In this document: positions 1 through 6,826 of the stretch, one piece after another
Numbering within the stretch: position 1 is the stretch's first letter
Layout of the letters: every line of letters starts with the position of its first letter
IMG/VR virus record: IMGVR_UViG_2693429599_000001
Span: 1-6,826 of that record
DNA length: 6,826 nt
Origin: a virus
Lineage: Duplodnaviria > Heunggongvirae > Uroviricota > Caudoviricetes
Strand: one strand, 5' to 3'
Translations under genes and position numbers: made by a program
The notes under the pieces: generated by a model
The model's input: the letters and a program-made list of their open reading frames with translations, nothing else
What the model was told of the DNA's origin: nothing
Databases searched by the model: none

Positions 1-1535
1 TTACGCAGTGCGCCTTCCTGCTGGTCAAACAGGTCAGTCCCCACCGCCTCATAAGCGGACTGAAACTCTTTAAAGTCACCGCCGAGGTTGTCCTGCATGA
101 TATTTACCAGCTCGGCGGTCTTCCCGTCTGAGGCTTTAAACGCAGCGGTCAGTTTGTCCAGCTTTCCGGTTGAGGCGGCAGTCATCAGCACGGCGGCGGC
201 TGAGCTGGCCTCCTCCCCGAAAATAGTTTTCATGTATTCAGCCTGCTGGGCAGTACCGAGCCGGTTTTTCTCAAAACTGGCCTGCATTTCTTTCAGAATG
301 GTAAATACTGGTCGGGTATTCCCCTTACTGTCTGAGGTTTTTACGCCAAGCTCTTTGAGTGCATCCCATGCTTTTCCCGTTGGTGCCTGCAGGCGACTTA
401 ACACGGCACGGCTTCCCGTCCCCGCCATTGAGCCTGTGATTTTTGCATCATGCAGCGCCCCGACCATTGCGGCGGTTTCTTCAATGCTGACACCGGCATT
501 TTTTGCCACAGGTGCGGCATAGGTCAGCGCATCGCTCATGCCGTCAAAATCGGCGGCGGTTTTGTTCATCGTCATGGAGAGAACATCCCCGATATGAGCG
601 ACCTTATCGTTTGAAAGCTGAAAGGCGGATTTCATCCCCATCAACAGGGCGGCGTTTTCTTCCATCGTGCGACGGTTCGCCAGCGCCATATTCAGCGTGA
701 CCGGCGTTGCCGCCTGAATGGCATCAACATCCCCACCGGCTTTTGCAATAATAATCTGCGCACCGGCTGCATCATCTGCCGAGGCTGCGGTATTGTCGCC
801 GAGCTGACGCGCCTGCTTGCGTAGTGCAGCCATTTCGGCGGAGTCTTTTGCCACTCCGAGCACAGCCTGTAATTCTGAGTTTTTCTGCGCAAACTCATAA
901 CCGGGCATCAGCAGCTTAACTCCGGCCATCGTTCCCGCCGCCGCAATCCCCACACCGGCAGCGCCCACCGAGGCCATATTTCCGGCCAGTTCCTTTCCGG
1001 CCTGATAACGCTGTTTTACTGCGTTAAGTTTTGCCTGTTGCGCACTGACACGCGCCAGTGCGTCGCGCTGACGATTAAGCTGTGCGGTGGTTTCACTGAT
1101 ACGGTTTTTCAGCCCCTGCTCATCATGTGCAAGATTGCGGGTATTAATTCCCACAGCGGCCAGTTCCCGCTGCTGGCGTTTAACGGAATCCGTCAGGCGG
1201 TTATATTTCGCCTGTAAGTCCTCCGCCGCTCGCTTTGCTGATTCCAGCACTTTCGCCTGAGCACGGGTCGGACGTTCGGTGTTTTTAAACTGTGTGGCAA
1301 GGGCTTCGGCCTCCTGCCGTGCCTTTTCAAGTGCATGACCAGTCACGGCAAGCTGTGCACTGGTCTTGCGAAATCCCTCAATACGGGAGGCGTGACCGTT
1401 CAGCTCGCGCAGTGATTTTTGTGTTTCCCGGATATCCCCCGACAGCGACTTACTCGCTGTGCGGATGGATTTAAACGGGCGGGATGCCTGGTCAACAGCC
1501 CTGAGCAATACCTGTAATTTTACATTGTTACTCAT
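1..1535 (-). CDS. T: Tail tape measure protein, P2 gpT-like; N-terminal 511 codons, gene runs off the window at position 1
   Basis: Minus-strand ATG at 1535-1533 translates MSNNVKLQVLLRAVDQASRPFKS; the frame stays open to the window edge (the tta at 1-3 is out of frame). Its ATG overlaps the E' stop (AATGAGTAA), and it sits downstream of E/E' as in P2. Coiled-coil-like A/Q/K/R-rich sequence. Confidence 0.85.
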   Translation of the reverse strand, partial: MSNNVKLQVLLRAVDQASRPFKSIRTASKSLSGDIRETQKSLRELNGHASRIEGFRKTSAQLAVTGHALEKARQEAEALATQFKNTERPTRAQAKVLESAKRAAEDLQAKYNRLTDSVKRQQRELAAVGINTRNLAHDEQGLKNRISETTAQLNRQRDALARVSAQQAKLNAVKQRYQAGKELAGNMASVGAAGVGIAAAGTMAGVKLLMPGYEFAQKNSELQAVLGVAKDSAEMAALRKQARQLGDNTAASADDAAGAQIIIAKAGGDVDAIQAATPVTLNMALANRRTMEENAALLMGMKSAFQLSNDKVAHIGDVLSMTMNKTAADFDGMSDALTYAAPVAKNAGVSIEETAAMVGALHDAKITGSMAGTGSRAVLSRLQAPTGKAWDALKELGVKTSDSKGNTRPVFTILKEMQASFEKNRLGTAQQAEYMKTIFGEEASSAAAVLMTAASTGKLDKLTAAFKASDGKTAELVNIMQDNLGGDFKEFQSAYEAVGTDLFDQQEGALR

Positions 1536-1955
1536 TCGTGTTTCCGCTTCGCCGGAGCGCCTTTTCGCGCCATGTGATAAGTTCGGTCAGGCTCATGGGA
1601 TACAGTTCTGATGGCGGCCAGTGAAATATCACTGCCACATCCGCCATCAGGTCATCGACCGAGAGATTTTTCGGAAACGTCACTGCACCGAGTTCGGCGA
1701 CAAAAAACCGACCACCTTACCGGCCAGCGCCACAAGGTCAGGCAGTTCCAGCGCGGCGACTTCCTGCTCGGTCAGCATCGGTGCCGTCATGCGCGGCAGC
1801 ACCTTAATCAGTGCATCGACTTCGGAGTTTGCAACCGCAGCCAGACTGACACCGCGTAGCGTCCCGGCATTGGGTTTCATCAGCGTGACCTGTTCGATAA
1901 CCTGCTCACCACGTTTGACCGGATTGTCCAGGGTAATGACATTTTCTTTGTTCAT
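1528..1955 (-). CDS. E+E': Tail assembly chaperone gpE+E', product of a programmed -1 frameshift (142 aa predicted)
   Basis: After the slip at GGT TTT TTG, the -1 frame stays open for 57 codons (VAELGAVTFPKNLSVDDLMADVAVIFHWPPSELYPMSLTELITWREKALRRSGNTNE) to a TAA at 1530-1528. That gives 85 + 57 = 142 aa, the length I recall for P2 E+E'. Confidence 0.75.
1680..1955 (-). CDS. E: Tail assembly chaperone gpE (91 aa)
   Basis: ORF-track protein MNKENVITLDNPVKRGEQVIEQ...GFLSPNSVQ; its position between tube and tape measure, its length and the slippery site near the 3' end match P2 E. Confidence 0.9.
   Translation of the reverse strand: MNKENVITLDNPVKRGEQVIEQVTLMKPNAGTLRGVSLAAVANSEVDALIKVLPRMTAPMLTEQEVAALELPDLVALAGKVVGFLSPNSVQ
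1701..1707 (-). other. Slippery heptamer T_TTT_TTG for the E/E' -1 ribosomal frameshift
   Basis: Plus strand caaaaaa at 1701-1707 is TTTTTTG on the minus strand, in the 0-frame context GGT TTT TTG at codons 83-85 of E. The P2 and lambda G/GT-type chaperone frameshift sites are of this kind. Confidence 0.75.
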
Positions 1956-2011
1956 GGTTTTCTCACTTCTGAATCAGGGTTAACCGGCCAGCCAGGCTGA
2001 CCGGATGAAAA

Positions 2012-2530
2012 TCACAGGCCGATATTGCGGCGGTGTTGCTCCAGCCGGTCGACGCCGTTCACCTTCTCAATCATGTTGATGGTGTCAATTTCGACCAGCT
2101 CCTTACCGTCCATCGTCAGCCGGAAATAGGTGCAGACCACGGAGATTTTCGACTCAGTGTCTTCTCCCTGTTTACCCTCGCCGGTGTCGATTTCTTTCTG
2201 ACGTCCACGCATGACCACTTCGACGGCCACCGTTTCGCCGGTATCATCGCGCTGGTAAGAGCCTGCAAAACGAATCGGCACGGCATCCACGCCGGTTGCG
2301 GCGTAAAGCTCCCAGATAACCGAATCCGGGAAGCCCCCGAGCGACCACTCCATTGACAGCGCATCGTCATCAAGGCCGAGGTCTACCGGTGCGCTGCCGT
2401 TCATCCCCGCACCGCGATAGTTTTCGAGCTTACGGGTCAGTTTTGGCAGCGTGACGGACTTTGCAACGCCCTGATAGCTGTAGCCGTTCAGAAAGACGTT
2501 CATTAACTTGAGTTTGCGTGGCATTGCCAT
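2012..2530 (-). CDS. FII: Tail tube protein, P2 gpFII-like (172 aa)
   Basis: ORF-track protein MAMPRKLKLMNVFLNGYSYQGVAKSVTLPKLTRKLENYRGAG...; GGAG ribosome-binding site 8 nt upstream of the ATG; lies immediately downstream of FI, and its size matches P2 FII. Confidence 0.9.
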   Translation of the reverse strand: MAMPRKLKLMNVFLNGYSYQGVAKSVTLPKLTRKLENYRGAGMNGSAPVDLGLDDDALSMEWSLGGFPDSVIWELYAATGVDAVPIRFAGSYQRDDTGETVAVEVVMRGRQKEIDTGEGKQGEDTESKISVVCTYFRLTMDGKELVEIDTINMIEKVNGVDRLEQHRRNIGL

Positions 2531-2542
2531 CGGTCAGGCTCC

Positions 2543-3733
2543 TTAATTGCTGTTAACCGAGGTGACCAGATTTGCCAGGTATTTATCGGTAATACGCTGG
2601 CGCAGGGTCAGGTTTTCGAGAGGAGGCACCGGTGTATAGTCGTAGTCGATATACAGTTTTCCGGCCTTGAGGGTTTCCGCATCGTTGGATTCTTCGCTGA
2701 ACCAGCAGGTCGCATCCACGATATAGCCGTTTGTTTTCAGCTCACGGAATTTGGCATTGATGCCGTCAACGATGTCGCGAATCAGCGTTGCGGTGATGGG
2801 CTTGTCCACCGCCCACATGTGCGCCTCAGCCATCGTGTCGGCCAGCACCTGCGCGGTGCGGGTGTAGTTTTCAAAGAGGAACAGCGGGTCATCAGAGCAG
2901 GTACGGTTACCCCAGAAGCGGAAACCATCACGGCGAATCAGCGTTGTGACGCCTGACTCATTCAGCAGGTCAGCATCGGTGCCGGACTCCTGCAAATCCC
3001 AGAATACAGAGGCACTGATGCCGGTAACACCGTTTACCCCGACATTGGACAGCGTTTTATGCCAGCCCTGCTCCTGGTCGATTTTAGCGCGCAGACCCAG
3101 CGCACGGGCGGTGGCATACGCGGTGGCGGTGGTGCTGCTGACCGTATCCCATGCGAGGAAATCCGGCCAGATGACCATCAGCTCACGCTGGCTGAAATTC
3201 TGGCGGTAGGCTTTCACCTCGGAAATGGTTTTACAGCCCCATGCGCTGATATACCCGAAAGCGCGCAGCTTCTGACAGACTGATGCCAGTGCAACAGCCA
3301 CCTCTTTGGTGTCCAGTCCCGGCACGCCGAGAATACGCGGTTTAACACCGGTTACCGACTCCGCCGCCAGCAGGGCTTTCAGTCCGGTATACTGACCGTT
3401 TTCGTCAGTGGTGCCGATGATATTGGAAACGGTCTGCGCGAGTTTCGTTTCTTCGTCGTCGCCGGTGCCGTCTTCAACACGCACGACAACGGTAACCGGT
3501 TTTGACTGGTCAGCGATGGCCTGCAACGATGCCGCCAGCGTGCCTTTTTTACCGGCCTTTGCAATTGCGCTCTGCACATTGGTAATCAGCACCGGTTTAT
3601 TGAGGGGGAAGGTTTCCGCATCCGCATCGCTGGCCGTACAGACCATGCCGACAATGGCAGTGGATACGGTGGAAATGACGCGGGTGCCGTCGTTAATCTC
3701 CAGCACCTGCACGCCGTGATGATAGTCACTCAT
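2543..3733 (-). CDS. FI: Contractile tail sheath protein, P2 gpFI-like (396 aa)
   Basis: ORF-track protein MSDYHHGVQVLEINDGTRVISTVSTAIVGMVCTASDADAETFPLNKPVLITNVQSAIAKAGKKGTLAAS...; a GGAG ribosome-binding site precedes the ATG; length and N-terminus match P2 FI as I recall it. Confidence 0.93.
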   Translation of the reverse strand: MSDYHHGVQVLEINDGTRVISTVSTAIVGMVCTASDADAETFPLNKPVLITNVQSAIAKAGKKGTLAASLQAIADQSKPVTVVVRVEDGTGDDEETKLAQTVSNIIGTTDENGQYTGLKALLAAESVTGVKPRILGVPGLDTKEVAVALASVCQKLRAFGYISAWGCKTISEVKAYRQNFSQRELMVIWPDFLAWDTVSSTTATAYATARALGLRAKIDQEQGWHKTLSNVGVNGVTGISASVFWDLQESGTDADLLNESGVTTLIRRDGFRFWGNRTCSDDPLFLFENYTRTAQVLADTMAEAHMWAVDKPITATLIRDIVDGINAKFRELKTNGYIVDATCWFSEESNDAETLKAGKLYIDYDYTPVPPLENLTLRQRITDKYLANLVTSVNSN

Positions 3734-3792
3734 CCGTTTAACTCCGTGGTTAATGGGTGAGTGATATTTTCAGTTGTGCCGGAGATGTCAGG

Positions 3793-4386
3793 CTATTTGT
3801 CCCGGTTGGCTAAGGGATGACACAATTTATTCTTTGTCGCTGATGAGGGGAATTTTTTATAGAGCGTGGACAGGCCAATATCAAAAATCAGCGCCACGCG
3901 TTGACGTGATTCACCCGCAGCCAGCAACCGTCCTGCCTGTTCCCACTCACTCGCGGTGAGCTTCGGACGTCTGCCACCAATACGACCTTTGGCTCTGGCC
4001 GCTTCCAGTCCGGCGCGAGTCCGCTCAACAATGAGTTCTCGCTCCATTTCAGCCAGGGCACCCATCACATGAAAGAAAAAACGCCCCATCGGCGTGCTGG
4101 TATCAATGGCATCCGTCAGGCTGCGAAAATTAATGCCGCGTTCGCGCAGCTCCTCAACCAGAATGACCAGATGCCGCATACTACGCCCCAGCCGGTCCAG
4201 CTTCCAGACTACCAGTGTATCCCCCTCCGATAATGTCCTGAGCAGTTTTTTCAGCCCCGGCCTGTCGGACTTCGTGCCGCTGATTTTATCCTCAAAAATC
4301 AGCTCACATCCTGCGCACTCCAGCGCGTTACGCTGCAATTCCGTGTTCTGGTCATTTGTTGACACGCGTACATAGCCAATAAGCAT
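3793..4386 (-). CDS. Serine DNA invertase, Hin/Gin/Cin/Pin family (resolvase-type catalytic domain plus C-terminal HTH)
   Basis: Translation MLIGYVRVSTNDQNTELQRNALECAGCELIFEDKISGTKSDRPGLKKLLRTL...VVWKLDRLGRSMRHL...GINFRSLTDAIDTSTPMGRFFFHVMGALAEMERELIVERTRAGLEAARAKGRIGGRRPKLT has the active-site Ser in VRVSTNDQ. I prefer the ATG at 4386-4384 (GGGGGA ribosome-binding site 5 nt upstream) to the ORF-track start at 4392. Confidence 0.9.
   Translation of the reverse strand: MLIGYVRVSTNDQNTELQRNALECAGCELIFEDKISGTKSDRPGLKKLLRTLSEGDTLVVWKLDRLGRSMRHLVILVEELRERGINFRSLTDAIDTSTPMGRFFFHVMGALAEMERELIVERTRAGLEAARAKGRIGGRRPKLTASEWEQAGRLLAAGESRQRVALIFDIGLSTLYKKFPSSATKNKLCHPLANRDK
4279..4303 (-). promoter_or_regulatory. 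Candidate recombinational enhancer element (Fis-site-like palindrome) inside the invertase 5' coding region
   Basis: Imperfect palindrome gctgatttt-N7-aaaatcagc at about +83 to +107 of the invertase gene; a second A/T-tract element ctgagcagttttttcag lies at 4238-4254, about 45 bp away. Hin, Gin and Cin enhancers lie in the 5' part of the invertase gene with two Fis sites about 48 bp apart. Position-based inference only. Confidence 0.25.
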
Positions 4387-4413
4387 GAGCATCCCCCTGA
4401 ATAAAAACCGGAG

Positions 4414-4803
4414 ATGATGCCAGTTGCCCGTTATCTCTGCATTTTCATAAACGTTGGTTTGGGGGAATTGGCTCTGGCTGGCGCAACAACCGGCGCTATG
4501 TTGGTGAATGGGTATGTAGCAATTCCATTAATTATTTCTGGCGTTCGGAGACCACTTATTATCCAGTGGGGAGTGGGGCAGTTTGGGGGAAGTCTGGGGG
4601 ATGATGCGGGATATTTAAACAATTTCCCTTTCGCTTTTCCGTCGGCGTGCTACGTGATGGTTGCCAGCCACGTGGGGCATACACCTTCGGGTGCCGGAAT
4701 ACTATCTGCTTCCGCAATCACAAAAAGCGGCTTTCGTGGTTTTTCCAGCGTAGTGACTGCCGCAAATCCTGTATCGGGCTGTTATGTTGCTATAGGAGGG
4801 TGA
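4414..4803 (+). CDS. Tail-fibre C-terminal (tip) cassette, invertase-proximal duplicate; probably silent unless joined to a fibre 5' part by recombination
   Basis: From 4454 it encodes the same 116 C-terminal residues as the fibre ORF ending at 5771 (LGELALAGATTGAMLVNGYVAIPLIISGVRRPLIIQWGVGQFGG...SGCYVAIGG). The ATG at 4414 directly abuts a GGAG (no spacer) and lies in the invertase upstream region, so independent translation is doubtful. Confidence 0.5.
   Translation: MMPVARYLCIFINVGLGELALAGATTGAMLVNGYVAIPLIISGVRRPLIIQWGVGQFGGSLGDDAGYLNNFPFAFPSACYVMVASHVGHTPSGAGILSASAITKSGFRGFSSVVTAANPVSGCYVAIGG
4442..4467 (+). other. Putative invertase crossover site A (26 bp, 12-2-12): ttttcataaacg tt ggtttgggggaa
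   Basis: Imperfect dyad with AAAC-type half-sites resembling hix/gix/cix/pix sites; lies 55 bp upstream of the invertase start; the 429-bp repeat begins at its central TT. Confidence 0.6.
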
Positions 4804-4882
4804 TGTGTTTTTTAGTCCATCTTTAAATATTTTTGTGAATCCTGCGCTTAAGGATGACTACATCAATGTAAATTCATGGCCA
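4454..4882 (+). repeat. Direct repeat copy 1 (429 bp, identical to 5422-5850)
   Basis: Base-by-base comparison of the two blocks; the identical antisense ORFs 4431-4622 and 5381-5590 in the ORF track reflect the same repeat. Confidence 0.95.
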
Positions 4883-4885
4883 TGA
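4805..4885 (+). pseudogene. Truncated tail-fibre assembly gene fragment (first 26 codons of the tfa at 5773, then a stop at the repeat boundary)
   Basis: GTG at 4805 with an AGGAGG ribosome-binding site, identical to the 5773 start; the frame hits TGA at 4883-4885, exactly where the repeat ends. Confidence 0.55.
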
Positions 4886-4901
4886 AGGCGTACTCATTGC
4901 G

Positions 4902-5771
4902 GTGGCGAACTGCCCGGAAACGTACAAACCGCAGTTGCAGGAAGGCAGTGGTCGTACCCAGACTATCCGCATGATTCTGGTTGTCACGAATACCGAAGCC
5001 ATCACGCTGAAAATCGACCCGTCGGTGGTACTGGCGACCCGTAAATACGTGGATGATAAAGTCCTGGAATTAAAGCTGTATGTGGATGACCAGATGAGAA
5101 ACCACATTGCCGCACAGGATCCTCATACCCAGTATGCACAGAAACATAATCCGACATTTACCGGAGAACCAAAAGCGCCGACGCCTGCCGCAGGAAATAA
5201 CACCACGCGGATTGCGACCACTGCGTTTGTACAGGCCGCTATTACCGCTCTGATTAACGGTGCCCCTGACACGCTGGACACACTGAAAGAAATTGCCGCA
5301 GCTATCAACAATGACCCGAAATTCAGTACCACCATTAACAATGCGCTGGCAGGTAAACAACCGCTGGACAATACGCTGACTCATTTGAGTGGAAAGGATG
5401 TAGCTGGTCTTCTCACATACCTTGGTTTGGGGGAATTGGCTCTGGCTGGCGCAACAACCGGCGCTATGTTGGTGAATGGGTATGTAGCAATTCCATTAAT
5501 TATTTCTGGCGTTCGGAGACCACTTATTATCCAGTGGGGAGTGGGGCAGTTTGGGGGAAGTCTGGGGGATGATGCGGGATATTTAAACAATTTCCCTTTC
5601 GCTTTTCCGTCGGCGTGCTACGTGATGGTTGCCAGCCACGTGGGGCATACACCTTCGGGTGCCGGAATACTATCTGCTTCCGCAATCACAAAAAGCGGCT
5701 TTCGTGGTTTTTCCAGCGTAGTGACTGCCGCAAATCCTGTATCGGGCTGTTATGTTGCTATAGGAGGGTGA
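4902..5771 (+). CDS. Tail fibre protein, 5'-truncated copy or alternative cassette (shaft region plus C-terminal tip); first ~100 codons of a full fibre gene absent
   Basis: Frame is open from 4872 with no ATG; first GTG at 4902. Encodes VLIAVANCPETYKPQLQEGSGRTQTIRMILVV...KYVDDKV...HNPTFTGEPKAPTPAAGNNTTRIATTAFVQAAITALINGAPDTLDTLKEIAAAINNDPKFSTTINNALAGKQP, which from memory resembles P2 gpH around residues 100-160 and the conserved enterobacterial side-tail-fibre motif. Crossover site B lies at codon ~170. Confidence 0.75.
   Translation: MANCPETYKPQLQEGSGRTQTIRMILVVTNTEAITLKIDPSVVLATRKYVDDKVLELKLYVDDQMRNHIAAQDPHTQYAQKHNPTFTGEPKAPTPAAGNNTTRIATTAFVQAAITALINGAPDTLDTLKEIAAAINNDPKFSTTINNALAGKQPLDNTLTHLSGKDVAGLLTYLGLGELALAGATTGAMLVNGYVAIPLIISGVRRPLIIQWGVGQFGGSLGDDAGYLNNFPFAFPSACYVMVASHVGHTPSGAGILSASAITKSGFRGFSSVVTAANPVSGCYVAIGG
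5410..5435 (+). other. Putative invertase crossover site B (26 bp): ttctcacatacc tt ggtttgggggaa
   Basis: Right half-site and core identical to site A, left half identical at 8 of 12 positions; same orientation as site A; lies inside the fibre ORF (encodes ...LLTYLGLGEL...). Confidence 0.6.
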
Positions 5772-5850
5772 TGTGTTTTTTAGTCCATCTTTAAATATTT
5801 TTGTGAATCCTGCGCTTAAGGATGACTACATCAATGTAAATTCATGGCCA
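5422..5850 (+). repeat. Direct repeat copy 2 (429 bp, identical to 4454-4882)
   Basis: Base-by-base comparison; starts at the central TT of site B and ends 78 bp into the tfa at 5773. Confidence 0.95.
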
Positions 5851-6207
5851 GATGATGCTGTTGAAGTTGATGAGCAGGTGTATATTGAGTTTTCCGGATT
5901 ACCGCCGAAAGGAAAAATCCGTATCGCTGGGGAAAATGGTTTTCCTGCATGGTCTGAAATTCCACCACCAACGCATGAGGAACAGATTGCCGCAGCCGAA
6001 TTGAAAAAACAGCAATTGATTAATCAGTCCAACGAATATATGAATACCAAGCAATGGCCTGGTAAAGCGGCTATTGGTCGTCTGAAAGGTGAGGAACTGG
6101 CGCAATATAATTTGTGGCTGGATTATCTGGACGCACTGGAACTGGTTGATACCTCCAGTGCTCCAGATATTGAATGGCCTACGCCTCCGGCAGTTCAGGC
6201 CAGATGA
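5773..6207 (+). CDS. Tail fibre assembly protein (Tfa, P2 gpG or Mu U-like chaperone) for the plus-strand fibre cassette
   Basis: GTG start 5 nt after AGGAGG and 1 nt after the fibre stop; C-terminus ...WLDYLDALELVDTSSAPDIEWPTPP shares the conserved Tfa C-terminal motif with the 6179-6772 protein. Confidence 0.85.
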   Translation: MFFSPSLNIFVNPALKDDYINVNSWPDDAVEVDEQVYIEFSGLPPKGKIRIAGENGFPAWSEIPPPTHEEQIAAAELKKQQLINQSNEYMNTKQWPGKAAIGRLKGEELAQYNLWLDYLDALELVDTSSAPDIEWPTPPAVQAR

Positions 6208-6772
6208 CATCCGGCGCGGTGCTCGTATCTGTTGCCGTCACCGCGTCAATGTAATCAAGCACGGCGTTAAGCCGGGTGGTTTCTGCCTGCGTCAGCTTCC
6301 GCCCGGCCTGTAATTTCAGCTGAATCAGGCTGATGGAAGCCATTGCAGCATCAATCAGTGACTGGCGCTGTGCTTCTGCCGCTTCTACTGCGGCACCGTG
6401 TTGTGCCTCAGTATCTGTCACCCATTTCTCACCATCCCATTTATCATATGGCGTTAACGGTGAAAGCGTGACATAACCGTTTTTGATGGCACCGATATAA
6501 TCCACTGTAACAGCTGCGCCATTTTCGATTGAGTAAACAGTCTCATTGCGATGGTCTTCTTCATGGCTCCATCCCTTACCTGTAAATACTGCCACTCTTC
6601 CCGGAATGTTTTCGCCAGGGTCAATACCAGTGGAACAGGCGGGCATACTTACGCCAGTATTAATATATTCATCAGACCAGCCCGTATACTCAGATGTTTC
6701 AGCATCATAATAAAAACAACGCATATCGCCCGGCACTGTAGCCAGCCCATTTTCATCAAAAACAGGTTTCAT
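6179..6772 (-). CDS. Tail fibre assembly protein (Tfa) partnered with the minus-strand fibre gene upstream
   Basis: ORF-track protein MKPVFDENGLATVPGDMRCFYYDAETSEY...LDYIDAVTATDTSTAPDVIWPELPEA; GAGGG ribosome-binding site upstream; converges on the plus-strand tfa with a 29-bp 3' overlap (6179-6207). Confidence 0.85.
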   Translation of the reverse strand: MKPVFDENGLATVPGDMRCFYYDAETSEYTGWSDEYINTGVSMPACSTGIDPGENIPGRVAVFTGKGWSHEEDHRNETVYSIENGAAVTVDYIGAIKNGYVTLSPLTPYDKWDGEKWVTDTEAQHGAAVEAAEAQRQSLIDAAMASISLIQLKLQAGRKLTQAETTRLNAVLDYIDAVTATDTSTAPDVIWPELPEA

Positions 6773-6826
6773 TATTTAGCCCTCACCAGAAAGTTAAATG
6801 CAATGTTACGTGGTCTGACGGCAATA
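6772..6826 (-). CDS. Extreme 3' end of the upstream minus-strand gene, presumably the expressed tail fibre (P2 H equivalent); partial, frame unresolved
   Basis: Two minus-strand frames are open to the window edge: one ends with TGA at 6785-6783 (...LPSDHVTLHLTFW), the other with TAA at 6774-6772 overlapping the tfa ATG as TAATG (...NFLVRAK). Gene order H then G is expected from P2. Confidence 0.3.
   Translation of the reverse strand, partial: IAVRPRNIAFNFLVRAK

Follow-up and report, generated by a model that had tools for sequence, protein, structure and literature searches.

How does a tail-fibre inversion switch come to contain the same fibre tip twice, in the same orientation and behind two closely similar recombination sites? 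The question is raised by a 6826-bp stretch of DNA (hereafter the window), which is the complete contig CYFI01000057.1 of a short-read-era draft assembly (GCA_001283785.1). In the canonical switch, an invertase flips a segment between a site in the fibre gene H and a site adjoining the invertase gene, such that two fibre tips, each with its own assembly chaperone, alternate. By comparing the window with related prophages we hypothesize, at a probability of about 0.6 for the reading as a whole, that it represents the tail region of a P2-like prophage in E. coli, one equipped with a tail-fibre switch of the Gin type, and that its additional 968-bp unit arose by tandem duplication in the ON state followed by an inversion catalysed by the invertase. 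The locus is found in one draft contig only, and is probably a private and unstable variant of a well-known system.

Gene content of the window

Genes were assigned by Pfam matches and by collinearity with annotated P2-like prophages and other relatives, including L001 (the canonical prophage of E. coli 2013C-4974, NZ_CP027587.1).

1..3733, minus strand: P2-type tail genes (Pfam assignments on called genes), collinear with the annotated prophage in L001
1-1535, minus strand: tape measure, partial (Pfam)
1528-1683, minus strand: gpE (Pfam)
1680-1955, minus strand: tail assembly chaperone (Pfam)
2012-2530, minus strand: tube FII (Pfam)
2543-3733, minus strand: sheath FI (Pfam)
3793..4386, minus strand: serine DNA invertase of Gin/Cin/Pin/Hin type, 197 aa (Pfam Resolvase, PF00239, and HTH_7, PF02796)
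5773..6207, plus strand: intact tail fibre assembly gene G2 (tfa), 144 aa, cognate to the fibre tip tip2 (Pfam Caudo_TAP; collinear with L001, L002 and L006)
6179..6772, minus strand: tail fibre assembly gene G1, 197 aa, for the alternative tip Hv1, convergent with G2 (Pfam Caudo_TAP_N and Caudo_TAP)
6773..6826, minus strand: alternative fibre tip Hv1, last codons only, up to the contig end (collinear with the Hv1 regions of L001, L002 and L006)

The order is that of the P2-like (Peduoviridae) tail module, H-G-(invertase)-FI-FII-E/E'-T, and each of two fibre C-termini is accompanied by an assembly gene of its own: tip2 (Gp53-like_C) with G2 on the plus strand, and the end of Hv1 with G1 on the minus strand. 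An NCBIfam search assigned neither the fibre nor the tfa proteins to a family, and its matches for the recombinase all fell below threshold. The contig stops 54 nt into Hv1 and not at a site, a position for which the history proposed below does not account.

The invertase gene is full length, and its product belongs to the small serine recombinases, with a resolvase catalytic domain at the N terminus and a helix-turn-helix at the C terminus. It matches the structures of Mu Gin (3UJ3 and 4M6F; E=1e-94) over residues 1-182 with ~80% identity, and the DNA at the 5' end of the gene (the first ~250 nt), taken with the spacing between site and start, agrees with Mu gixR-gin at 82% mean column identity. 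In switches of this type, the 5' part of the recombinase gene carries a recombinational enhancer bound by Fis. The sequence is that of a close Gin homologue and gives no evidence of activating changes.

Recombination sites

4442..4467, plus strand: site A, 26 bp, consisting of TTTTCATAAACG (invertase-side half-site), core TT (4454-4455) and GGTTTGGGGGAA (tip2-side half-site); aligns with Mu gixR
5410..5435, plus strand: site B, 26 bp, consisting of TTCTCACATACC (H-side half-site), core TT (5422-5423) and GGTTTGGGGGAA (tip2-side half-site)

Gin-class sites span 26 bp and are cut centrally, with a stagger of 2 bp (PMC1904230). In A as in B, two 12-bp half-sites, imperfect inverted copies of each other, flank a 2-bp core; the two sites share the core and the right half and are in direct orientation, both on the plus strand. 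The half-site combinations are also seen in the canonical relatives L001, L002 and L006, and the H-gene site of L004 and L006, two relatives in the switched-on state, has the same sequence as site B. No third or inverted site occurs on either strand of the window, and an inverted partner is expected inside H, past the contig end.

An inverted pair of sites is present in the close relatives L001, L002 and L006, the first combining the half-sites as inv+tip2 and Hc+Hv1, and the other two as Hc+tip2 and inv+Hv1. All four combinations expected from exchange at TT are thus represented among canonical relatives, indicating that the switch operates in the lineage. At the same level (in strains other than that of the window), the segment is found in both orientations.

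A perfect repeat that starts at the site cores

4454..4882, plus strand: repeat copy 1, 429 bp, comprising the core and tip2 half-site, the fibre tip coding region (stop 4801-4803) and the first 78 nt of the G2 tfa (GTG 4805)
4883..5409, plus strand: Hc3', a second copy of the constant shaft from fibre gene H that spans codons about 97-275 of 275 (translation; Pfam Phage_tail_fib and Gp53-like_C)
5422..5850, plus strand: repeat copy 2, 429 bp, the same as copy 1, with the end of the tip at 5771 and an intact tfa running on

Comparison of the window with itself at an offset of 968 bp revealed that 4454-4882 and 5422-5850 are identical over all 429 bp and lie in direct orientation, that in each copy the repeat opens precisely with the central TT of its site (A or B), and that the sequences outside the two copies are unrelated on both sides. 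Chance cannot explain an exact repeat of this length. In copy 1 the truncated tfa is closed by a TGA (4883-4885) created by the junction with the shaft fragment. The fragment itself, Hc3', lacks the N-terminal ~96 codons of H and is open in frame through site B into the tip, giving an ORF at 4902-5771 (289 aa); its identity to full-length H is 97.7-98.9% in L001 and L002 and reaches 100% in L006.

A preliminary description of this DNA had proposed that the two sites and the 429-bp blocks are direct repeats, and that removal of one unit would restore the canonical succession of invertase, site, tip and tfa. Both points are borne out: after deletion of 4454-5421 in silico the invertase, site A, the fibre tip and the intact 144-aa tfa remain, and the resulting sequence is collinear with the real L001 prophage in one 5857-nt alignment (97.6% identity, 3 gap openings). 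The comparison with invertase-bearing P2-like prophages that it had suggested likewise finds the canonical layout, without the 968-bp unit, in real genomes. Its further view of the locus as canonical plus one inserted unit holds in that a tip block, 78 nt of tfa and a shaft fragment, 968 bp together, are added to the canonical layout, but the addition is not foreign, being the prophage's own switched-on H-tfa operon in permuted order. Positions 4883-6824 are collinear with the ON-state arrangement H-G2-G1 (98.9% in L002, 99.3% in L006), and the 968-bp unit is therefore a permutation of native contiguous sequence; specifically, 4883-5850 is contiguous in ON-state relatives, and 4454-5421 is a circular permutation of that stretch, which runs from H nt 288 to tfa nt 78. 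The locus thus has what a tandem duplication leaves behind: a single novel junction, and a unit that corresponds to one contiguous parental stretch.

The novel junction

4882..4883, plus strand: junction of G2 nt 78 with H nt 288 (comparison of parental sequences; A4882 is assignable to either parent)

The junction lies inside a 14-bp perfect palindrome, TTCATGGCCATGAA (4873-4886), and palindromy ends after these 14 bp. At the junction the parents have 1 nt of microhomology, and they share a 7-mer, GATGATG, nearby. When 200,000 breakpoint pairs were drawn at random, palindromes of 14 bp or more across the junction arose with P=7e-4, a 7-mer common to the parents and no more than 8 nt from either breakpoint with P=8e-3, and both features jointly with P=5e-6; the junction is a non-random join. 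Since the join itself has only 1 nt of microhomology, use of GATGATG requires either an additional loss of 5 nt or a double template switch.

The junction is absent from 5426 complete E. coli genomes (a 251-nt junction probe found no place at least 80% covered), as well as from IMG/VR, GTDB species representatives and JGI metagenomes. The simple microhomology joint, GGCCAGATGATGAAGG, has no occurrence in GTDB representatives, and its 5-nt gap would be tolerated in the search of the 5426 E. coli genomes. Crossover by the invertase at a quasi-site was also considered and rejected, as the two sides of the junction have no common 2-bp core, share only the one ambiguous A and bear no resemblance to a half-site on either side. 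Other phages that seemed to carry a shaft fragment beside a silent cassette proved not to do so, their two matching places per record being an internal shaft repeat and the normal inverted repeat of ~30 bp.

The window makes up a complete draft-assembly contig, and its junction is unique across every collection searched; both observations would fit an assembly artefact: the real prophage would be canonical, with two sites, and the tip block would have been written twice by scaffolding or gap-closing. A culture holding both orientations of the segment, possibly with a second near-identical copy in an e14-like element, would yield reads in support of both the invertase-tip2 and the H-tip2 joints, and a contig starting inside H could then be placed between the invertase flank and the segment. 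Mixtures of segment orientations in culture are documented in P2-like prophages (Goldberg et al. 2014, PMC4272514), and many other elements of E. coli, a number of them annotated as stfP, carry tip2-G2-G1 at ~99% identity, such that the source genome may hold multiple copies. In addition, L006, which is a contig of another draft assembly, begins 25 nt from the junction position, which shows that this part of H is a place where contigs can break.

The join itself argues against this explanation. With parents that share 1 nt there and a 7-mer nearby, no k-mer path leads from tfa nt 78 to H nt 288, and a de Bruijn contig at this place therefore needs reads that contain the junction. Merging of overlaps through GATGATG predicts GGCCAGATGATGAAGG, whereas GGCCATGAAGG is observed; the window contains no ambiguous bases (N), at 4882/4883 or elsewhere; and the combination of palindrome and homology, at a joint chance of about 5e-6, disfavours blind concatenation. 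The whole structure is, moreover, exactly what one duplication and one legitimate inversion predict. We therefore regard an artefact as unlikely, although appreciable enough to carry a warning: short-read drafts of invertible phage loci can give contigs with duplicated cassettes, and read-level validation should precede interpretation.

Proposed duplication followed by inversion

In the history that we favour, tip2 would first have been fused to H (the ON state), and the DNA between H nt 288 and tfa nt 78 would have been duplicated in tandem by a replication event or illegitimate recombination, making the single novel junction 4882/4883; 5 nt may then have been lost at the junction. The invertase would subsequently have recombined the outer H site with the invertase-proximal site and flipped the whole interval, so that the two repeat copies came to lie behind site A and site B respectively, with a promoterless shaft fragment between them. 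This two-step model is sufficient to reproduce the window, junction included: when 6002-6969 of L002 is duplicated and the result is inverted between two site cores, the product contains the junction string and aligns with window positions 3160-6824 in one 3666-nt alignment (98.9%). A third site and the full H would lie just beyond the contig, and the order of the two events is an inference from the model. Short-read assemblies struggle with exact repeats of 429 bp and 539 bp, which weighs against this history.

The same content would also result if the DNA were real but of other origin. A head-to-head inverted duplication would fuse a copy in state 1 with a reverse-complemented copy in state 2, such that Hv1, a site, a second invertase and sheath gene, and not H, would follow beyond 6826; alternatively, a 968-bp circle may have been integrated into site A by the invertase. 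Both models predict a window identical to the one observed. Palindromes are often linked with strand-switch events, and the junction lies in one of 14 bp; the invertase of this lineage can, furthermore, cause aberrant rearrangements that become fixed in genomes, as in L005, where a crossover occurred at a quasi-site in the sheath gene. The head-to-head form, however, would leave the tail operon duplicated or disrupted and requires the same illegitimate junction plus a larger rearrangement, which is less parsimonious than a 1-kb tandem duplication, and no extended fold-back accompanies the palindrome. As for the circle, the Fis-dependent family of invertases disfavours intermolecular reactions (PMC4817059). 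Integration would need just such a reaction, and before it an illegitimately closed circle of 968 bp. Such origins are improbable.

Predicted states and stability

If tandem duplication and inversion did occur, and if the third site lies off the contig, the locus would be a three-site, four-state module; the duplicated recombination site would turn a two-state switch into a four-state one and hide the tandem nature of the repeat. State a, as assembled, would express H-Hv1 with G1, and state b H-tip2 with G2; state c would be the tandem form; and state d would have H-tip2 with only the non-cognate chaperone in sense orientation and is predicted to be defective.

RecA-dependent recombination would delete the unit and return the locus to the canonical layout, between the 429-bp repeats in states a and c and between the 539-bp shaft copies in states c and d. 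By derivation from the model, it would do so in three of the four states, and one state would have no pair of repeats in direct orientation. The deletion by homologous recombination foreseen in the preliminary description would thus be possible in most states but not in all, and removal of a real duplication would hinge on the state of the switch. Instability and population heterogeneity of the locus remain predictions.

Excision by the invertase, which had also been considered conceivable, is a different matter. Were the enzyme to resolve sites A and B and release the unit as a circle at an appreciable rate, the unit would be a programmed or frequently excised element and not a passive duplication; the direct orientation of the sites, their identical cores and their identical right halves would suit such a reaction. 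Wild-type invertases of the Gin class, however, rely on a Fis/enhancer invertasome that is selective for inverted sites, and in the wild-type Gin/Hin invertasome directly repeated sites are brought together in an alignment that does not permit ligation after a single exchange. A Fis-independent Hin mutant does delete between direct sites as fast as it inverts, but it is set apart in this respect from the Fis/enhancer-dependent wild type (PMC4817059), and the enzyme of the window resembles Gin and shows no evidence of activating changes. PMC2724282 makes no statement on directly repeated sites. The duplication also persists with copies that are 100% identical. Excision by the invertase is accordingly very improbable.

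Comparison with known systems

The locus resembles the Mu G segment with Gin, and likewise the P1 C segment with Cin and the e14 P segment with Pin, in having a small serine invertase (~80% identical to Gin) encoded just outside the segment, 26-bp sites alignable with gixR and equally distant from the start of the recombinase, and alternative, convergent fibre C-termini with their own chaperones. Those systems have two inverted sites, whereas the window has two direct ones, with the third, inverted site predicted off the contig; unlike in any of them, one silent cassette is a perfect copy of the other and brings with it about 65% of the constant shaft (179/275 codons). P1 carries 0.6-kb inverted repeats, but these lie inside the invertible segment. 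The canonical two-site P2-like prophages with the invertase between G and FI (among them NZ_CP027587.1, NZ_CP067342.1 and ABXUFX010000086.1) share gene order, half-sites and 97-99% nucleotide identity with the window and represent both orientations, but lack the 968-bp unit.

Tandem duplications formed at short homologies in bacterial chromosomes have one novel joint, head-to-tail units, perfect copies and RecA-dependent loss. The putative duplication agrees with them in its single joint, head-to-tail logic, copy identity and expected loss by homologous recombination. It differs in that it overlaps a site-specific recombination site, so that the invertase can part and reorient the copies and thereby mask their tandem nature, and in that one predicted state could not lose it by homologous recombination.

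It is possible, and we suggest it tentatively, that the contig has caught a tail-fibre inversion module in the act of gaining a third cassette. A tandem duplication across the site in the expressed orientation, followed by an invertase flip, would park a complete silent copy together with most of the constant region. Silent cassettes have been proposed to derive from a duplicated gene with later decay of its upstream part (Milman et al. 2023, PMC9881135); if the suggestion is correct, the window would be a direct intermediate for that proposal and would show a route from two-site switches to shufflon-like modules. If the duplication is real, this route to multi-cassette tail-fibre modules is testable. 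The topology predicted for the window is that of a P2-like prophage of EPEC E2348/69, in which, as experiments have documented, one invertase acts on three sites in two nested inversions and four variants coexist, each giving rise to two others (Goldberg et al. 2014, PMC4272514). That module has three different C-termini and is a stable feature of its genome, whereas here the three tips include an identical pair, the sites have a shaft fragment and a truncated tfa between them, and in one of the four states the cognate chaperone is predicted to be missing; by this comparison the unit looks like a recent duplication and not an evolved third cassette.

Gene content and recombination sites

Over its full 6826 bp the window is identical to CYFI01000057.1, a complete contig in draft assembly GCA_001283785.1 of E. 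coli. Its genes are arranged as in P2-like prophages in which the invertase is placed between G and FI; the two-site relatives L001 (NZ_CP027587.1) and L002 (NZ_CP067342.1) are annotated in this way.

Features of the window
Minus strand: P2-type tail genes (partial tape measure, gpE, tail assembly chaperone, tube FII, sheath FI)
4386-3793, minus strand: serine recombinase, 197 aa, after the tail genes
Right of the recombinase, plus strand: fibre-tip and tail-fibre-assembly (tfa) sequences
4442-4467, plus strand: site A, TTTTCATAAACG TT GGTTTGGGGGAA
5410-5435, plus strand: site B, TTCTCACATACC TT GGTTTGGGGGAA
6772-6179, minus strand: second tfa, G1
Right end, minus strand: last codons of the second fibre tip, Hv1

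Against the Mu Gin structures 3UJ3 and 4M6F, the recombinase scores E=1e-94 with ~80% identity across 182 residues. Site A can be aligned with Mu gixR, its distance from the recombinase start codon equals that in Mu, and neither strand of the window holds a further 26-bp site beyond A and B. In its recombinase, sites and cassette layout, and in the evidence of inversion from its lineage, the system agrees with Gin, Cin and Pin, and it is a tail-fibre switch of that family in a P2-like prophage. The inverted partner site is expected beyond the contig end; the part of the gene where an enhancer would lie, its first ~250 nt, aligns with Mu gin at 82% mean column identity, spacing to the site included. 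Half-sites in L001 join the invertase to tip2 (one alternative fibre tip) and the fibre gene H to Hv1 (the other), while L002 and a third two-site relative, L006 (ABXUFX010000086.1), carry the reciprocal combinations; judged by these sequences, the switch evidently works in this lineage. RefSeq annotates the silent cassette (window 4414-4803, L001 6715-7104) as a 129-aa 'gp53-like domain-containing protein'; this putative, promoter-distal ORF uses as its start an ATG between the invertase gene and the site.

Structure of the 968-bp unit

Compared with itself at an offset of 968, the window matches without a break over 4454-4882 (429 bp at 100%), with unrelated flanks on both sides. The two repeat copies start precisely with the central TT of their sites, which is where this class of enzyme cleaves, with a 2-bp stagger (PMC1904230). 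In silico removal of 4454-5421 gives a one-piece alignment to L001 (5857 nt, 97.6% identity, 3 gap openings), so that the preliminary description of a long repeat, direct sites and a canonical remainder after deletion is right in every structural detail.

The right end of the first copy is a novel junction, 4882/4883, whose parents we identified using intact H genes: on its left are 78 nt from the start of G2, the tfa of tip2, and on its right H from nt 288 (codon 96/97). The junction places a TGA directly behind codon 26 of the truncated tfa, and the H fragment (4883-5409) stays in frame across site B and on into the tip, forming a 289-aa ORF (4902-5771). Window 4883-6824 is collinear with the switched-on operon of L002 (98.9%) and of the L006 draft contig (99.3%), in the order H constant part, site, tip2, G2 and convergent G1. 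The 968 bp of 4883-5850 thus form one uninterrupted stretch of native sequence, of which 4454-5421 is a circular permutation. The duplicated cassette copies are still identical, and 179 of 275 constant-region codons are retained. The reference prophages L001 and L002 are themselves partly decayed. In L001, H is annotated as two pseudogene pieces (8096-8629, 8990-9379), yet at the DNA level the shaft fragment aligns collinearly with it; L002 has a truncated sheath gene, V and one morphogenesis gene (3389-3857, 9069-9641).

Origin of the structure

A two-step model was built from L002, with tandem duplication of 6002-6969 followed by inversion from the first H-site core to the invertase-proximal-site core. 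Its reverse complement contains the junction string and matches window 3160-6824 as one alignment of 3666 nt (98.9% identity). A duplication and a legitimate inversion, one of each, are therefore enough and, on this modelling, would be the most likely origin of the structure; the model also predicts a full, inverted H gene just past the window end. We put the probability that the duplication is real at about 0.6; other real topologies are improbable.

The junction is not a random join. It creates a perfect 14-bp palindrome, TTCATGGCCATGAA (4873-4886), and both parents carry the 7-mer GATGATG at most 8 nt from their breakpoints (around window 5851-5857) in the same reading frame (Asp-Asp), with only 1 nt of homology at the join itself. 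Among 200,000 simulated random breakpoint pairs, a palindrome of at least 14 bp across the join arose at 7e-4, a 7-mer shared near both breakpoints at 8e-3 and both at 5e-6, for features picked post hoc. Both features would be explained either by a 973-bp duplication via GATGATG with subsequent loss of GATGA, which would also destroy an in-frame tfa-H fusion, or by one replication event with two template switches. The junction as an invertase product was ruled out, as its parents share no common 2-bp core there.

Real duplication or assembly artefact

The contig is a draft that stops 54 nt into Hv1, not at a recombination site, so that neither the presumed third site nor the real H gene is in view. 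A junction probe found no covering place in 5426 complete E. coli genomes, and scanning IMG/VR, GTDB representatives and JGI metagenomes for exact matches likewise gave nothing.

Window 5419-6824 (tip2-G2-G1) is ~99% identical in many E. coli records with a non-matching constant fibre part, some annotated stfP (e14-like); on sequence grounds this cassette block seems common to unrelated prophages, and it may be multi-copy within genomes. Position 1 of L006, an independent draft of a 99.3% identical prophage, corresponds to window 4908, and this end and window 6826 hint at the limits of repeats shared with other prophages of the respective genomes.

Misassembly is a less likely but serious rival, since a culture with both orientations would yield reads for invertase-tip2 and H-tip2 joints alike, the tip2-G2-G1 segment is shared with other elements, and the L006 contig breaks 25 nt to the right of the junction position. 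However, no k-mer path joins the two parental positions, an overlap merge via GATGATG would produce another sequence than that observed, the contig has no N, and the junction signature is strongly non-random.

Predicted states and loss of the unit

Given a real duplication, and assuming a third, inverted site within the real H gene, inversions would connect four states. As assembled (state a), H-Hv1 would be expressed with G1; an H-site/site-B inversion would give state b, expressing H-tip2 with intact G2, and an H-site/site-A inversion would restore the tandem form (state c). State d would fuse H to tip2 with only G1 in sense; should the chaperones be tip-specific, this state would be defective.

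States a and c would have the 429-bp repeats in direct orientation, states c and d the 539-bp shaft copies, and state b neither; RecA-dependent deletion to the canonical layout is thus expected but state-dependent. Between repeats this long, such deletion would be expected at a frequency far under read-depth detection. The proposed refutation of unit loss, by uniform read depth and a missing deletion product, is weak. The architecture and the return route to the canonical form stand from the earlier interpretation; excision by the invertase, its other suggested route, is unlikely, as the wild-type invertasome aligns sites for inversion (PMC3798978).

Comparison with known switches and relatives

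The topology predicted here, with three repeats and four coexisting variants, was demonstrated by sequencing and PCR in a P2-like prophage of EPEC E2348/69 (PMC4272514). Unlike the window, the canonical relatives examined have inverted repeats of at most ~31 bp and a silent cassette without an adjoining shaft fragment. What is unusual is a private structural variant of a well-understood type of system, seen once, in a single draft contig. Silent cassettes have been suggested to descend from duplicated genes whose upstream parts decay later (PMC9881135); if real, the locus would be a plausible intermediate in such descent.

In L005 (NZ_OZ546943.1 383413-392932), an inversion (~3737-3762 and 7330-7355) with endpoints at the H site and a quasi-site within the sheath gene FI splits both H and FI. 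The switched-on relative L004 has this 26-bp quasi-site, GGCGCGGATACC TT CGATAATGTCGC, undivided in its sheath gene (8273-8298, minus strand); in L005 it is cut exactly at TT, one half adjoining the Hv1 half-site and the other the H half-site. From sequence comparison, the split looks like an aberrant invertase crossover at the quasi-site, fixed in complete genomes; NZ_CP032204.1 has the same match pattern, with H and the sheath gene split.
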